This document shows positions 1 to 5,910 of a stretch of 6,152 nucleotides of DNA, piece by piece. The stretch is from a virus (Duplodnaviria > Heunggongvirae > Uroviricota > Caudoviricetes): IMG/VR virus record IMGVR_UViG_2671181134_000013; one strand, given 5' to 3'. Position 1 is the stretch's first letter. Each line of letters starts with the position of its first letter. The position numbers were made by a program, and so were the translations under genes. The notes under the pieces were generated by a model. The model saw only the letters and a list, made by a program, of their open reading frames with translations. It did not search any database and was not told the origin of the DNA.

Positions 1-1218
1 ATGAACAAACTGAGCGATACCTTGCTAAGGAAACTTCATGGTAAGCCAGCGGAGAAAAACACGTTTTATAGTGATGGCGGAAACCTGAGCGTGAAATATT
101 TAACATCAGGGAAATTGACCTGGTATTTCACATACAGGGCCGGAACGGGAAGGGAGACACGACCCGAACGCATTAAGCTGGGAAGTTATCCTGATCTGAG
201 CCTGAAAGCAGCCAGGGAAAAAGCCGCACAGTGTCGCACATGGCTGGCTGAGGGGAAAAATCCACGTCATGAGATGAATTACACCGTACAGGAAGCGTTA
301 AAGCCCGTAACGGTTGGCGATGCGCTCACCTACTGGCTTGAGTATTACGTAAAGGAAAACCGCGTGGATTATATCGCCCTGAAAAGGCGACTTAATAATC
401 ACGTAATACAGCAGATTGGTGCTATGCCGCTGGATAAATGCGAGCTACGGCACTGGCTGGCCTGTTTTGACCAGGTGGCAAAGCGAACGCCTGTTACTGC
501 CGGATTCGTGCTACAGGCGTGCAAACAGGCGCTTAAGTTCTGCCGTAGGCGGCGCTATGCAATCAGCAACGTTCTGGACGATCTGAACGTGGCGGACGTT
601 GGGAAAAAACCGGATATAAGCGAACGTGTCTTAAGTAACAAAGAACTTGGCGAATTATTGCAGGCACTGGACAAAAAAATATTCTCCCCTTACTACGTCG
701 CGTTAATCCGCCTCCTGATTGTCTTCGGAGCCAGAACGGTAGAACTGAGGTTATCGGAGATCGGGGAGTGGGATTTTACGGAAATGCTATGGACCGTTCC
801 GAAGGAGCACAGCAAAACGAAGGTCGCAATATTCCGGCCCATACCGGAAGCGATCCTGCCGTTCGTCACGCAGCTGGTGGAGCAGAACAGGCACACGGGC
901 TTATTGCTGGGGGAAGTGAAACAGGAGGCCAGCGTATCGCAGTATGGAAGATTAGCGCACAGGAGGCTTAATCATCCTCACTGGTCACTACATGACATCC
1001 GGCGCACCTTTACAACGATGCTGAACGATTTAGGCGTGGATCCTCACGTCGTGGAGCAGCTTACAGGCCACCAGATGCCAGGAATGCAGCGAGTTTATAA
1101 TCATTCCCGTTATCTGGATGCTAAACGCAATGCGCTGGATATGTGGACGGAGCGGTTAGGGATACTGGCGGGAACACATGAAAACGTAACCACGCTACCA
1201 GTAGCCAGAAGAAAATAA
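1..1218 (+). CDS. int: Tyrosine-type site-specific recombinase (P4 / CP4-57-family integrase), 405 aa
   Basis: N-terminus (LSDTLLRKL..GKP....FYSDGGNLSVKY...GKLTWYFTYR...IKLGSYPDLSLKAAREKA) matches the arm-binding domain pattern of P4-type integrases; C-terminus carries the catalytic box HDIRRTF and the tyrosine-containing RVYNHSRYLDAKRNALDMW. ATG is at window position 1, so the promoter, upstream start alternatives and any att/tRNA site are not visible. Stop TAA at 1216-1218. Confidence 0.9.
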   Translation: MNKLSDTLLRKLHGKPAEKNTFYSDGGNLSVKYLTSGKLTWYFTYRAGTGRETRPERIKLGSYPDLSLKAAREKAAQCRTWLAEGKNPRHEMNYTVQEALKPVTVGDALTYWLEYYVKENRVDYIALKRRLNNHVIQQIGAMPLDKCELRHWLACFDQVAKRTPVTAGFVLQACKQALKFCRRRRYAISNVLDDLNVADVGKKPDISERVLSNKELGELLQALDKKIFSPYYVALIRLLIVFGARTVELRLSEIGEWDFTEMLWTVPKEHSKTKVAIFRPIPEAILPFVTQLVEQNRHTGLLLGEVKQEASVSQYGRLAHRRLNHPHWSLHDIRRTFTTMLNDLGVDPHVVEQLTGHQMPGMQRVYNHSRYLDAKRNALDMWTERLGILAGTHENVTTLPVARRK

Positions 1219-1260: not shown

Positions 1261-1320
1261 ACAGATACAACGTGCAACAATGAGCAACAATGTGGAACAA
1301 CCACGAACAAGAGGCGAAAA
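1261..1320. repeat. Five to six tandem 10-bp units each ending in ACAA (consensus G-N-A-A-C-A-A), exactly helically phased
   Basis: Consecutive 10-mers acagatACAA / cgtgcaACAA / tgagcaACAA / tgtggaACAA / ccacgaACAA / gaggcgAAAA; ACAA recurs at 1267, 1277, 1287, 1297, 1307. Lies 43 bp after the int stop in the int-alpA intergenic region. Confidence 0.55.
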
Positions 1321-1582: not shown

Positions 1583-1771
1583 GTGTTAAGCACTGATCGG
1601 TTTATACGTGAAAAAGAATGCGAAAAACTAACCGGCCTTAGCCGTACGTGTCGCTACCGCCTGGAAAAGGCCGGACAATTCCCATCACGTCGTAAACTTG
1701 GCGGTCGTTCCGTTGGCTGGTCTTTATCCGAGGTTCTGGCCTGGAAGGATAGCTGCAAGGCAGTTCATTAA
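1583..1771 (+). CDS. alpA: AlpA / Vis-family (Phage_AlpA, MerR-like HTH) transcriptional regulator or excisionase, 62 aa
   Basis: Translation RFIREKECEKLTGLSRTCRYRLEKAGQFPSRRKLGGRSVGWSLSEVLAW fits the AlpA signature (TGLSRst.Yrl...G.FP.p.klg.rsvgW...E...W). GTG start at 1583 preceded by AAGGGGG (1571-1577). Confidence 0.85.
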   Translation: MLSTDRFIREKECEKLTGLSRTCRYRLEKAGQFPSRRKLGGRSVGWSLSEVLAWKDSCKAVH

Positions 1772-1917
1772 TCACGCTGGCGGCACGCAGCCGCCACACA
1801 TCAATCATCTGAACACAGAGCTATAACCATGAAGATTGAATATACGCCAGAACGTAGGCGGGGATTCGTTCGCCCTGGTGAAACTGAAAAACAACAAAAT
1901 TGGGGTTTTTCAGGCAT

Positions 1918-1945
1918 AACAAAAAGCGCCCAGTTACCTGAGCGC
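1918..1945 (-). terminator. Candidate rho-independent terminator for the minus-strand cassette (weaker on the plus strand)
   Basis: Stem 1926-1933 / 1938-1945 (GCGCCCAG / CTGAGCGC) with loop TTAC. On the minus strand the single mismatch becomes a G-U wobble and the stem is followed by UUUUUGUU (plus A-run 1921-1925). On the plus strand it is followed only by CTTTG. Confidence 0.4.
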
Positions 1946-2148
1946 CTTTGTGAACGATTAACCTGCTGCGAAAAAATTGGATCAGTGCAGGGGAATTATA
2001 TCAACTGTGTGAAGAAGCGCCACTATTGCCGGATAACAGGCAAAGAAAAGGCCACCAGTCACGGTGGCCCTGCGACACAAATTTCGCGTTATCCCCAACG
2101 CATGAGCATCGCCAACAATGCCACATTTGCGGCTGGTGGGCAATGCTA

Positions 2149-2322
2149 TCAGTCTGGTTCAGTTCGTTGCCATACCTGCAATGAGCGCTTTTCCCTGTAC
2201 TCTTTAAGGAATTGCTCAAGGGCAAAAGCACATGGCGCGAATCTTTCTGATTCATGCTCTATCTTTCTGCGCCGTCTTTTCCGTGCCGGTGATAATGTTT
2301 TGGTCAATTCTTTATCGGTCAT
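2149..2322 (-). CDS. Hypothetical small basic protein (57 aa from second ATG; 62 aa if ATG at 2337)
   Basis: Minus-strand ORF MTDKELTKTLSPARKRRRRKIEHESERF...; AGGA lies 7 nt upstream of the ATG at 2322. Lies 58 nt downstream of the RHH-like gene on the same strand. No recognisable domain. Confidence 0.25.
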   Translation of the reverse strand: MTDKELTKTLSPARKRRRRKIEHESERFAPCAFALEQFLKEYREKRSLQVWQRTEPD

Positions 2323-2379
2323 TGTGTTGTCCTGCATAGCAATGCGCCGTAATACCTCACACCACGGCGCTGATAGTGA

Positions 2380-2559
2380 TTATTCTGATTCTTTGGCCTT
2401 GCGGCGCTGGCGGCGTTTGATCTCGCCTTCAAGTGCCGAAACGATAAATTGCCCTGTACTTTCGCCATCTTCCTTTAAATTTTCTACAGCATCAGCTATT
2501 GCGTGTGGTACTCGAGCCTCAAGCTTTTTGGATTTTGCATTAACTGCTTTTGTTGCCAT
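2380..2559 (-). CDS. Small ribbon-helix-helix (Arc/CopG/MetJ-like) DNA-binding protein, 59 aa; candidate repressor
   Basis: Internal ATG at 2559 of the 106-aa minus ORF has GAGGAAA 8 nt upstream. Product MATKAVNAKSKKLEARVPHAIADAVENLKEDGESTGQFIVSALEGEIKRRQRRKAKESE aligns by eye with Arc (FNLRWP-REVLDLVRKVAEENGRS-VNSEIYQRVMESFKK): beta-strand LEARVP, helix A, G-x-S turn, helix B. Divergent from the plus-strand operon. Confidence 0.55.
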   Translation of the reverse strand: MATKAVNAKSKKLEARVPHAIADAVENLKEDGESTGQFIVSALEGEIKRRQRRKAKESE

Positions 2560-2580
2560 ATCTGATTTCCTCGTTATTAG

Positions 2581-2662
2581 GTGGCTGACAGTATACACAC
2601 AAGAAAACGGAAAAACACTATTGACGTGGCTGACACCCGTTACTAATATAGTGGCTGACACC
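2581..2662. repeat. Three direct repeats GTGGCTGACA(CC) in the divergent control region; putative operator sites
   Basis: Exact 10-mer at 2581-2590, 2626-2635 and 2651-2660; copies 2 and 3 share the 12-mer GTGGCTGACACC. Copy 1 is 21 bp upstream of the RHH start, copy 2 overlaps the -35/spacer of the plus promoter, copy 3 sits just downstream of the -10. Confidence 0.5.
2621..2649 (+). promoter_or_regulatory. Sigma70-like promoter for the plus-strand operon (P4 PLE-like position)
   Basis: TTGACG (2621-2626), 17-bp spacer, TAATAT (2644-2649). Located about 100 bp upstream of the first operon ORF. Confidence 0.35.
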
Positions 2663-2690
2663 TTTATCAAGGTAATCGATGAAAAGACAA

Positions 2691-2723
2691 AGCCCCGCAA
2701 GTGTCGTTACCACTCGCAGGGCT
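2691..2723. other. 13-bp-arm imperfect inverted repeat (hairpin) in the operon leader
   Basis: AGCCCCGCAAGTG-tcgttac-CACTCGCAGGGCT; 11 of 13 Watson-Crick pairs on the plus-strand RNA. Both mismatches become G-U wobbles on the minus-strand RNA, giving a 13-bp stem. No U-tract follows on either strand. Confidence 0.4.
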
Positions 2724-2753
2724 TCTAACCAACAACGTAAACTAGGAGCCGTT

Positions 2754-3619: not shown

Positions 3620-3919
3620 ATGAAACTTAAATATTCTGGCTTAACTGCCAGTGGCAACACTCACCCTAAATTTACGCGCGGTGATATTTACCGCGACCAG
3701 TACGGCGGCACGGTAATGATTAAGGGCGTGGCGGGACGGTGCGTAACTTACCGCCGTGAAGGTTACGAATATGATTGCGTGATGCCTGTTTATCAGTTCC
3801 GGCGTGATTTTTCTCTGGTACAGACCGCGCCGCATAACGTGCCCACCAGCAACGCCAGGGCACGGGCAAACATCCAGAAGCTGAAAACAATGATTAACGG
3901 ATTCAGGGGTAAAAAATGA
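3620..3919 (+). CDS. Hypothetical protein, 99 aa
   Basis: ATG 3620 with GGAGA at 3606-3610. Its stop overlaps the primase start (ATGA at 3916-3919), indicating translational coupling. No recognisable domain. Confidence 0.6.
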   Translation: MKLKYSGLTASGNTHPKFTRGDIYRDQYGGTVMIKGVAGRCVTYRREGYEYDCVMPVYQFRRDFSLVQTAPHNVPTSNARARANIQKLKTMINGFRGKK

Positions 3920-5670
3920 AACTGGCACCGAACGTAAAACAGCAGTCACGCGGCATAAAACACAAAGAAACAGAAGTCATTATTTTTGCGGGTAGTGATG
4001 CCTGGTCACACGCAAAACAATGGCAGGAACATGACGCGCGTATGGCCGGAGATAATGAGCCTCCTGTGTGGCTTGGGGAGCAGCAGTTATCAGAACTGGA
4101 TAAGCTGCAAATTGTGCCGGAAGGCAGAAAATCCGTGCGCATATTCAGGGCCGGATATCTTGCGCCAGTAATGATAAAGGCGATTGGTCAGAAGCTGGCG
4201 GCGGCAGGCGTACAGGATGCAAATTTTTACCCTGATGGTATGCACGGTCAGAAGGTGGAGAACTGGCGCGAATATCTGGCCAGTGAGCGCCAGAATCTTT
4301 CTGATGGGCTGGTTATTGAGCTTCCTGTAAAGCAAAAGGCGCAACTTTCGCAGATGGCGGACAGTGAGCGCGCTCAACTTCTTGCCGGACGATTTGATGG
4401 CGTTTGCGTGCATCCTGAAAGTGAAATCGTTCACGTATGGCGCGGCGGGGTATGGTGTCCGGTCAGCACAATGGAACTTAGCCGCGAAATGGTGGCGATC
4501 TATTCAGAGCACAGGGCCACTTTCAGCAAGCGCGTAATCAATAACGCCGTGGAAGCGTTAAAAGTTATTGCCGAACCAATGGGCGAGCCGTCCGGCGATT
4601 TGCTGCCGTTCGCCAATGGTGCGCTTGACCTGAAAACGGGGGAATTTTCCCCGCACACGCCGGAGAACTGGATCACCACGCACAACGGCATTGAGTACAC
4701 GCCACCAGCACCAGGGGAGAACATCCGCGATAACGCGCCAAACTTTCATAAATGGCTTGAGCACGCAGCCGGAAAAGACCCGCGCAAGATGATGCGTATA
4801 TGTGCCGCGCTGTACATGATTATAGCGAACCGGTACGACTGGCAGATGTTTATTGAGGCCACCGGAGATGGCGGGAGCGGTAAAAGTACATTCACGCACA
4901 TAGCCAGCCTTCTGGCAGGGAAACAGAACACGGTAAGCGCTGAAATGACGTCGCTTGATGATGCTGGTGGACGTGCGCAGGTTGTCGGGAGTCGTCTTAT
5001 CGTCCTGGCTGACCAGCCGAAATATACAGGCGAAGGAACGGGCATCAAGAAAATCACGGGCGGTGACCCCGTGGAAATTAACCCGAAATACGAAAAGCGT
5101 TTCACGGCTGTAATCAGGGCGGTGGTGCTGGCGACCAACAATAACCCGATGATATTCACCGAACGGGCCGGAGGTGTGGCACGTCGTCGCGTGATTTTCC
5201 GTTTCGACAATATCGTCAGTGAGGCCGAAAAAGACAGGGAGCTACCGGAAAAGATTGCGGCTGAAATCCCTGTCATTATCCGCCGATTGCTGGCGAACTT
5301 TACCGACTCTGAGAAAGCACGGGCTTTACTACTGGAACAGCGTGACGGTGATGAAGCTCTGGCAATAAAGCAACAGACGGATCCGGTTATTGAGTTTTGC
5401 CAGTTCCTGAATTTTCTGGAGGAAGCACGCGGCCTGATGATGGGCGGCGGTGGCGATTCAGTGAAGTACACGACCAGAAACAGCCTTTACCGCGTCTATC
5501 TGGCGTTTATGGCGTACGCAGGCAGGAGCAAACCGCTAAACGTAAATGACTTTGGCAAGGCTATGAAGCCAGCCGCGAAAGTTTACGGACATGAATATAT
5601 TACGCGGAAAGTTAAGGGAGTAACGCAGACTAACGCAATAACAACAGACGAGTGCGACGCGTTTTTATAA
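3916..5670 (+). CDS. Replication initiation protein: P4 alpha-like primase-helicase (D5_N / primase-C-terminal region plus SF3-type NTPase), 584 aa
   Basis: Walker A GDGGSGKST (about 4864-4890), Walker B-like hydrophobic strand LIVLADQ (about 4996-5016), and upstream PFANGALDLKTGEF...HTPENWITT typical of the D5_N/P4-primase C-terminal family. GGGG Shine-Dalgarno 6 nt before the ATG. The N-terminal 300 aa has no CxxC zinc motif that I can see. Confidence 0.88.
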   Translation: MKLAPNVKQQSRGIKHKETEVIIFAGSDAWSHAKQWQEHDARMAGDNEPPVWLGEQQLSELDKLQIVPEGRKSVRIFRAGYLAPVMIKAIGQKLAAAGVQDANFYPDGMHGQKVENWREYLASERQNLSDGLVIELPVKQKAQLSQMADSERAQLLAGRFDGVCVHPESEIVHVWRGGVWCPVSTMELSREMVAIYSEHRATFSKRVINNAVEALKVIAEPMGEPSGDLLPFANGALDLKTGEFSPHTPENWITTHNGIEYTPPAPGENIRDNAPNFHKWLEHAAGKDPRKMMRICAALYMIIANRYDWQMFIEATGDGGSGKSTFTHIASLLAGKQNTVSAEMTSLDDAGGRAQVVGSRLIVLADQPKYTGEGTGIKKITGGDPVEINPKYEKRFTAVIRAVVLATNNNPMIFTERAGGVARRRVIFRFDNIVSEAEKDRELPEKIAAEIPVIIRRLLANFTDSEKARALLLEQRDGDEALAIKQQTDPVIEFCQFLNFLEEARGLMMGGGGDSVKYTTRNSLYRVYLAFMAYAGRSKPLNVNDFGKAMKPAAKVYGHEYITRKVKGVTQTNAITTDECDAFL

Positions 5671-5683
5671 TTTTTTGTAATTG

Positions 5684-5910
5684 CTGTCTACCCTGTCTAC
5701 CTGAATAAAGAAAGATACATTTAATTCAGTGCATTAAGTTAGGTAGATAGCCTTTTTTTACTGTCTACCCACTATCTACCCTCTCTACCTGATTTTACCT
5801 GAATCAGACAGGGAGGTAGACACGGGGTAGATAGCGGATAAAAGCACTCTACCCCGCTGAAAGCCGCGCCATTACTGGCATGAGGGCCACTAAGGTAGAT
5901 AAGGTAGACA
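5684..5910. repeat. Iteron array, putative origin of replication: 11 copies of octamer T(G/A)TCTACC in both orientations around an AT-rich spacer
   Basis: Forward copies at 5685, 5694, 5762, 5773 (TATCTACC), 5782 (TCTCTACC) and 5848 (core TCTACC). Reverse copies GGTAGA(C/T)A at 5742, 5815, 5826, 5894, 5903. AT-rich segment 5703-5740. Lies immediately 3' of the primase-helicase gene. Confidence 0.6.

Follow-up and report, generated by a model that had tools for sequence, protein, structure and literature searches.

Recombination directionality factors (RDFs) bind DNA cooperatively at direct repeats that are arranged head to tail one helical turn apart, and they bend the DNA; such arrays are found at attachment (att) sites and promoters in the Apl, Cox, and RdfS systems (PMC7498355; PMC11963761). 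Phage 186 Apl has five repeats at att and seven between pR and pL, the Cox boxes of P2 are found at att and in the Pe-Pc region, and RdfS of ICEMlSymR7A has sites at attP and at its own promoter. In this study, we analyzed a repeat array in a stretch of viral DNA of 6,152 nucleotides (IMG/VR record IMGVR_UViG_2671181134_000013; referred to as the window), which is the left part of an island of approximately 11.5–11.6 kb inserted in tqsA, with a 99.8% identical copy in Escherichia coli STEC17-183 (locus L001). The island is a phage-inducible chromosomal island (PICI) of the capsid-forming type, similar to EcCIEDL933 and EcCICFT073. PICIs and capsid-forming PICIs are widespread and move virulence and defense genes, and AlpA is their switch. 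No description of PICI cis sites for AlpA, of this array, or of the route by which a helper induces alpA was found in the literature searched. The array lies at 1261–1320, between the integrase gene int and alpA. Judging from sequence comparison and a predicted protein structure, it is, with a probability of roughly 0.6, an AlpA operator of five to six monomer sites that, together with an IHF-like site, serves the autoregulation of alpA. The feature falls into an established class, that of operator arrays used by dual-function excisionases, and the array is newly described for PICIs as far as the searchable literature shows.

The PICI arrays resemble those of Apl, Cox, and RdfS in that direct repeats spaced by a helical turn occur at att and in a promoter region, with the gene of a small winged-helix RDF nearby. 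They differ in the sign of regulation: Apl and Cox repress the promoters to which they bind and RdfS coordinates rdfS and intS expression, whereas PICI AlpA activates its own expression. The PICI arrays also differ in occupying both att arms and in that the promoter-associated array is placed approximately 120–190 bp upstream of the two promoter candidates, behind a terminator-like hairpin.

In the prophage KplE1 (CPS-53), the TorI sites GTTCG, GATCG, and GTCCG were defined by mutagenesis, and the block I3-5 (GTTCGtcatgGTTCGcttcaGATCG) holds three GTTCG at 10-bp spacing and abuts the -35 element of intS (PMC2951348). The TorI sites share with the PICI arrays the 10-bp spacing and a position upstream of the int promoter in attL, and the PICI units TTGTTCG and CAGTTCG are close to them in sequence. 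KplE1 IntS also carries an Arm-DNA-bind_3 domain, as PICI Int does. However, TorI is 29% identical to AlpA over 42 residues and has no PF05930 match, torI is located at the far end of the prophage, and no third array at the RDF gene has been described.

P4 is likewise a satellite with a P4-type Int, 12-bp arm repeats in two copies per arm, and a gene of the AlpA/Vis family (Vis being of the PF05930 type); the arm repeats annotated in P4 attP read TGGGGGCAYA. P4 also has three 10-bp direct repeats approximately 110–140 bp upstream of the Vis gene, but these (GCTTTAAGTG) resemble cox boxes, have no counterpart in the att arms of P4, and, lying upstream of PLL and vis, are bound by Cox of the helper P2. 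PICIs differ from P4 in gene content and organization (PMC6092414). An initial annotation made from the sequence of the window alone (the first-pass annotation) had compared the locus to P2/P4-type systems, a label that gene content and relatives replace with that of a PICI.

Pseudomonas aeruginosa AlpA has eight helices with a Q-like fold, recognizes one GGGACG element, situated between -35 and -10, and reaches into the RNA exit channel (PMC9371919). The 62-residue PICI AlpA has no such N-terminal part and therefore does not belong to the P. aeruginosa AlpA family; the two proteins are alike solely in name and in the positive control of downstream genes. Antitermination of the P. aeruginosa type was rejected for PICI AlpA on account of its length, its predicted excisionase fold, and the position of the array, which is not inside a promoter. 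The literature searched for the GIsul2 excisionase contained no information on its DNA sites.

Anatomy of the repeat array

The array, referred to below as the distal array (1261–1320; no strand assigned), consists of the consecutive 10-mers ACAGATACAA CGTGCAACAA TGAGCAACAA TGTGGAACAA CCACGAACAA GAGGCGAAAA. Five of them end in ACAA at exactly 10-bp spacing, with ACAA starting at 1267, 1277, 1287, 1297, and 1307 (span 1267–1310), and AACAA occurs four times (1276–1306). The sixth 10-mer, GAGGCGAAAA, is a degenerate unit that ends in AAAA. Read on the minus strand, the array is TTGTTCGTGG TTGTTCCACA TTGTTGCTCA TTGTTGCACG TTGTATCTGT, with the consensus TTGTTnCACG, as in the att arms. It starts 43 bp past the int stop codon (1218) and lies 263–322 bp upstream of the GTG start codon of alpA (1583). 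The first-pass annotation had described the five ACAA-ending 10-mers, the sixth ending in AAAA, their coordinates, and the position between int and alpA correctly; the motif that it gave, GNAACAA, holds for units 2–4 but not for unit 1 (GATACAA) or unit 5 (CGAACAA).

A run of five such units is beyond what was obtained by shuffling. The longest run of a 4-mer at periods of 8–12 bp was at most three in 300 dinucleotide-preserving shuffles of the window and at most four (five cases) in 3000 shuffles of the intergenic region. Tandem Repeats Finder called solely 1274–1300 (period 10, 2.7 copies), and this call is short because the six bases separating the motifs differ. RDF operator arrays comprise at least three head-to-tail sites at a spacing of 10–11 bp; the distal array has five such sites and the relatives have five or six, and the units are spaced by exactly 10 bp both in the window and in all relatives examined.

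Ahead of the array, downstream of the int stop codon, an inverted repeat, CAGTATG-CA-CATACTG, was observed at 1236–1251; five-unit relatives keep it, and in six-unit relatives the sixth ACAA unit takes its place.

Conservation of the array in related islands

Homologues of the int–alpA spacer were found in 788 of 5426 complete E. coli genomes at identities of 73–99.8%, and the islands with a homologous spacer include EcCICFT073, an experimentally studied classical PICI (locus L021). Nine int–alpA spacers of E. coli relatives, from three integration sites and with 73.5–100% identity, were aligned. Invariant columns accounted for 20 of 20 positions within ACAA, 6 of 30 between the motifs, and 159 of 304 elsewhere in the spacer (Fisher test, 5e-9 and 6e-6). 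The ACAA columns are invariant and the columns between the motifs vary; therefore, purifying selection acts on ACAA and its phasing, that is, on a word of 4–5 bp and a 10-bp register and not on the intervening bases. The more diverged islands, EcCICFT073 included, have six ACAA units. Conservation in related islands, proposed in the first-pass annotation as a check, thus confirmed that the phasing is kept. Relatives of alpA from other genera have a different architecture with no int upstream; they were excluded from this alignment and were used in the comparison of AlpA helices and motifs described below.

Other explanations of the conserved pattern were considered. A coding role is excluded by the conservation pattern together with an 11-bp indel that breaks the minus-strand open reading frame (ORF) at 1110–1310 in relatives, and codons cannot accommodate a period of 10 bp. 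No Rfam family matched within 1150–1900 even at an E value of 1, and the RNA folding of the whole spacer was no better than that of shuffles (z = -0.76). A DnaA box was also rejected, as TGTGGAACA matches 7 of 9 positions, occurs in one unit only, and is not conserved.

Arrays in the att arms and putative Int arm-type sites

Phased TTGT units are present in both att arms of the island. The attL arm, upstream of int and just outside the window (L001 12750–12789), contains four of them, TTGTTCCAGC TTGTTTCACG TTGTAGCCCT TTGTGCAACG, and the attR arm at the other island end (L001 24048–24077) contains three, TTGTGTCTAT TTGTTCCACG TTGTTTCATA. The TTGT array of each arm is followed by GGTGTAGTCACTGGTGTAGTCA, i.e., two copies of GGTGTAGTCACT, so that array and repeats of the attL arm together occupy L001 12750–12815. 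The att core common to both halves of the split tqsA gene is ATAACAGCA. Phased TTGT/ACAA arrays of at least three units occur only three times in the 11.6-kb island, with four units in the attL arm, three in the attR arm, and five in the distal array, compared with 0.02 in shuffles. The orientation of the distal array is opposite to that of the att-arm arrays, and the preferences at unit positions 5–8 are alike in the arms and in the array. By sequence, the distal array appears to be a third, inverted copy of the att-arm arrays, and its unit recurs beside the likely Int arm sites, as is found for RDF operator arrays.

The 12-bp direct repeat (GGTGTAGTNA) is present in two copies on each att arm (L001 12793–12815 and 24081–24103) and was also seen in the attL arms of L002–L009 and L021–L024. 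Since two adjacent copies per arm are also the layout of the annotated arm repeats of P4, the 12-bp repeats are likely Int arm-type sites. The tqsA- and ilv-type islands have GGTGTAGTCAC(T) / GGTGTAGTCACT and the Int N-terminus SVKYLTSGK, and the roxA- and cspD-type islands have GGTGTAGTTAAT or GGTGTAGTCAAT and the Int N-terminus SVRHSTSGL. The 12-bp repeat (GGTGTAGTCAC or GTAGTTAA) therefore tracks the Int N-terminus, whereas the TTGT units do not: the repeat differs even at 100% AlpA identity (L009 vs. the window), AlpA is 94–100% identical across the repeat switch, and the TTGT units remain the same where Int N-termini share only 78% identity. Because the 12-bp repeats vary with the Int N-terminus, Int is accounted for by a site other than the 10-bp units.

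AlpA as the candidate binding protein

The gene alpA (1583–1771, plus strand) encodes a 62-residue winged-helix protein that matched PF05930 in Pfam (E value, 5e-17) and PHROG 2790/66, annotated as "excisionase and transcriptional regulator"; no other protein of the window has a PHROG-type excisionase or regulator annotation. AlpA matches PDB entry 8c3t by sequence. Its AlphaFold model (predicted local distance difference test, 86) has the excisionases 8c3t, 8dgl, 4j2n, and 1z4h as best PDB matches; the proteins matched include GIsul2 Xis (template modeling score, 0.83/0.90), RdfS, Pukovnik Xis, and TorI, as well as BldC. By its predicted fold, AlpA would be an excisionase-type protein, and the island would thus encode the small winged-helix RDF that accompanies such arrays.

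The sequence of the units changes with AlpA. TTGT/ACAA units were found in all islands with AlpA proteins 89–100% identical. In the cspD-type islands, with AlpA 54–59% identical, the arms contain GTTCG and CGAAC occurs three times upstream of alpA; the Int N-terminus of these islands is no more distant than those between other island types. Where the AlpA helix reads SR(S/T)CRYR(L/M)EK, a phased ACAA triple was present in 61 of 63 distinct upstream regions. The triple was absent from all 19 regions with the helix RTTRY, 14 of which have CGAAC-N5-CGAAC or GTTCG-N5-GTTCG, including those of islands from other genera in which alpA is not next to int. As expected of RDF arrays, the site covaries with the recognition helix, over about two clades and with overlapping motifs. 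The first-pass annotation had suggested that the motif is presented on one helix face to a small protein that binds cooperatively, and that the site acts in recombination directionality or alpA regulation. The phased unit in both att arms, its tracking of the AlpA allele, and the predicted excisionase fold argue in favor of both suggestions.

Several further observations concern AlpA and its putative sites. In islands of other genera in which alpA does not follow int (L011–L015, L216, L219, and L226), a G+C-rich hairpin with a T-run was found approximately 10–50 bp upstream of alpA. These hairpins hold CGAAC-N5-CGAAC or GTTCG-N5-GTTCG, e.g., GCCCTCGAACtgtaaCGAACGAGGGC, and the putative AlpA sites would accordingly be situated inside a terminator-like structure in these islands. 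Other capsid-forming PICIs with the same AlpA type have an extra phased array of 3 + 2 units upstream of the packaging module; in L025 (7650–7720), and also in L107 and L119, three ACAA and two more at 11 and 10 bp occupy the gap between the perC-like and major capsid genes. A second, longer AlpA-like ORF of approximately 128 residues is present near the right end of cspD-type islands (L063 8208–8592; L055 6014–6398), which recalls the two AlpA paralogues reported for EcCIMP1.

Surroundings of the distal array and the alpA promoter region

An IHF-consensus-like site, AATCAGCTACTTA (WATCAANNNNTTR, one mismatch), is located at 1335–1347 on the minus strand, 24–37 bp from the last ACAA. It has zero or one mismatch at the same position in all nine relatives, and its four unspecified (NNNN) positions vary. 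IHF-like hits in a single sequence are not above chance (4 vs. 6.2 expected); thus, support for the site comes from the conservation pattern and not from the single-sequence match. The attL-arm array has an IHF-like site on the same side as the distal array does, as judged by eye.

A conserved stem-loop, AAAGGCATGAAA-CAATA-TTTTATGCCTTT, preceded by an A-run and followed by GTATT, is located at 1405–1440 on the plus strand (stem-loop proper, 1405–1433). According to single-sequence folds, it forms in all eight relatives with -11 to -17 kcal/mol, and a compensatory A-T to G-C change (GGCAT/ATGCC to GGCGT/ACGCC) was observed. This structure resembles a terminator in either direction, probably terminates int transcription, and sits between the distal array and both alpA promoter candidates.

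The best candidate for the alpA promoter in a sequence scan is at 1503–1531 on the plus strand (-35 TTGCCA, 17-bp spacer, and -10 AACAAT). ATTTGCCA is invariant in the nine relatives, and (A/C)ACAAT follows 17 bp downstream in every variant, as judged by eye. An alternative sigma-70-like candidate at 1437–1464 on the plus strand (TTAACA, 16-bp spacer, and TATTCT) has a 9/12 match and is partly conserved in the alignment. A promoter directly downstream of the distal array was rejected, as TATAAG and TATACA lack the conserved final T or are wrongly spaced and none was called by the scan.

A proximal degenerate array, AACAATACG ACACAATAAG ACACC, is located at 1526–1551 (no strand assigned) and has two ACAA units 10 bp apart; this pair, at 1527, is the sole other ACAA-N6-ACAA pair in the window. 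The proximal array overlaps the predicted -10 element and transcript start, and the relatives have two to four units, e.g., two to three copies of GACACAATCC. Units of the TTGTGTC form, as in the proximal array, are also present in the arm and distal arrays.

At least three to four discrete variants of the promoter-proximal segment (1503–1560; alignment columns 300–390) exist, carrying insertions of 10 or 20 bp, and they shuffle independently of the distal segment; L004, for example, combines a diverged distal segment with a window-type proximal one. Because it exists in discrete variants, the promoter-proximal segment is a better candidate determinant of helper specificity than the distal array.

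Proposed role of the array and alternative explanations

In EcCICFT073, AlpA activates a PalpA-lacZ fusion, and the overexpression of AlpA alone leads to excision and replication (PMC6092414). The published PalpA primers were mapped to L021 2603–3058, and the fusion holds the six-unit distal array and the proximal repeats; no location was found in L021 for the Pint reporter primers of the same study. If the distal array is an AlpA operator, AlpA monomers would occupy one helix face cooperatively and, like other RDFs, bend the DNA. On the att-arm arrays, AlpA would drive Int-mediated excision. On the distal array, an AlpA filament, helped by the adjacent IHF-like site, would act on the alpA promoter region approximately 120–200 bp downstream, and the outcome would be the positive autoregulation of alpA, as measured in EcCICFT073. 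In this scheme we infer the binding of AlpA, the bending of the DNA, and the activating sign at the alpA promoter.

Several points weigh against an AlpA operator that acts in this manner. AlpA left a Pint-lacZ fusion of EcCICFT073 unchanged, although an array abuts int (PMC6092414). The array is approximately 190 bp from the best -35 element (approximately 120 bp from the alternative one) with the terminator-like hairpin in between, which is unusual for a simple activator site, and the proximal repeats overlap the -10 element, a position that is normally repressing. AlpA is an activator, unlike the known dual-function RDFs (Apl, Cox, and TorI), which repress promoters. It is also atypical for arrays to be present on both att arms, as most RDFs bind one arm. 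The covariation of motif and helix involves essentially two AlpA clades and thus few independent events, and the two motifs overlap, TTGTTCG fitting both. Moreover, reports of AlpA binding to a site are absent from the literature searched, and the binder is inferred throughout.

The central idea of the first-pass annotation is nevertheless right in outline. Although such an array is not surprising in principle, it gives a precise map for the unsolved switch of a very common satellite family. This testable cis map comprises arrays in the attL and attR arms, a third one upstream of alpA that is accompanied by an IHF-like site, a degenerate promoter array, and separate 12-bp repeats as likely Int arm sites, and it allows autoactivation, helper induction, and excision to be separated by point mutations.

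Among the alternatives to an AlpA operator, it is possible but unlikely that the array is a landing pad for a helper-phage protein, such as an Xis-like RDF, that switches on alpA as Cox of P2 does in P4. Transcription of alpA is induced by helper phages through a factor left unnamed (PMC6092414), an EcCIMP1 alpA reporter was still induced by the helper in a ΔalpA mutant, and an EcCIMP1 AlpA paralogue partly replaced the phage Xis (PMC11773190). The three 10-bp repeats upstream of P4 vis (GCTTTAAGTG; approximately 110–140 bp) point the same way. However, the island itself carries the array units in its att arms, AlpA alone is enough for excision when no phage is present (PMC6092414), and the motif covaries with the AlpA helix. 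In addition, the distal array is nearly identical in EcCICFT073- and EcCIEDL933-type islands, for which different helpers have been reported. A helper protein and AlpA might also share the units: an Xis/Cox-type early protein of the helper would bind the phased units of AlpA and trigger alpA, after which AlpA would provide positive feedback and excision through the att arms. We regard this scenario as doubtful. If true, the induction of Gram-negative PICIs would be a case of RDF cross-talk, the second independent one after the logic of P2 Cox and P4 PLL, and the long-sought phage inducer of these islands would be identified.

Explanations that dispense with a directionality factor fit the data less readily. 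The array might be intrinsically curved AT-rich DNA that recruits H-NS or Fis and silences alpA with no sequence-specific partner. Phased AA steps are present, a rough wedge model predicted a bend of approximately 35 degrees per 31 bp, which ranks at the 96th percentile within the window, and alpA of the Shewanella prophage CP4So is under repression by H-NS (PMC5148205). Nevertheless, several other peaks in the window are higher, and among the units only the last has an A5 tract, bent DNA being characterized by phased tracts of A4–6. Selection acts on ACAA, including its C, while the G+C-rich bases between the units drift; the same unit recurs at the att arms beside the Int sites, and the motif switches with the AlpA allele. 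The predicted value of the intrinsic curvature envisaged in the initial annotation is moderately high but not the highest in the window, and it is ACAA, not A-tracts, that is conserved; taken alone, curvature explains the array weakly and is improbable as its basis. It is very improbable that the distal units are integrase arm-type sites, as had also been suggested, or that they provide the intasome with an accessory arm. An arm-binding domain is present in Int, short direct repeats are what arm sites consist of, and the TTGT units adjoin the att cores in attL and attR; against this, the distal array is approximately 1.45 kb from the attL core ATAACAGCA, far beyond the approximately 150 bp taken as the limit, and no GGTGTAGT repeat is found beside it. 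A different repeat, GGTGTAGTNA, with a 12-bp period and two copies per arm, covaries with the Int N-terminus, and the TTGT units change with AlpA and not with the Int N-terminus. The matching side of the IHF-like site at the attL-arm and distal arrays could also be explained if the array were a non-functional relic, an inverted duplication of the attL-arm part with IHF site and array. Such a relic has very little chance of being the right explanation, as ACAA has stayed invariant in islands whose flanks fall to 73% identity and the copy number is five to six throughout hundreds of islands. A second cis replication region, another earlier proposal, finds no counterpart at the presumed origin of replication (5685–5910), just after the primase gene. 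The iterons there, TRTCTACC at 5685, 5694, 5762, and 5773 and the complementary GGTAGAYA at 5742, 5815, 5826, 5894, and 5903, are unrelated to ACAA, and no phased ACAA was found within this region. A crr-like replication element was likewise rejected, as the iteron at the origin differs from the ACAA unit.

Other features of the island

The int gene (1–1218, plus strand) encodes a tyrosine recombinase with an N-terminal Arm-DNA-bind_3 domain, as determined by Pfam analysis and locus comparison. It is followed in the window by alpA, an icd-like operon, a DUF4222 gene, a D5-type primase gene (3916–5670), and the iterons. To the right of the window, L001 carries genes for ssb, perC, the major capsid protein, a head decoration protein, and the small terminase. 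The copy of the island in O157:H7 EC4115 is given as a PICI in the supplement of a previous study (PMC6092414).

An ORF of 299 residues at 1829–2728 (plus strand), annotated in RefSeq as a hypothetical protein, has no Pfam or PHROG match and overlaps a YlcI/YnfO-like gene on the opposite strand. Relatives carry different or truncated genes at this position, and it is possible that the ORF is not a genuine gene. GTGGCTGACA occurs three times (2581–2590, 2626–2635, and 2651–2660) in the divergent region that separates the YlcI/YnfO-like gene (2380–2559, minus strand) from the icd-like operon (from 2754). By its sequence, this triplet looks like the operator set of another regulator; CTGACAC is also present in the alpA-proximal repeats of some relatives. 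Finally, a G+C-rich hairpin without a T-run, TGGCGGC-ACGCA-GCCGCCA, was observed at 1778–1796, 7 bp past the alpA stop codon.

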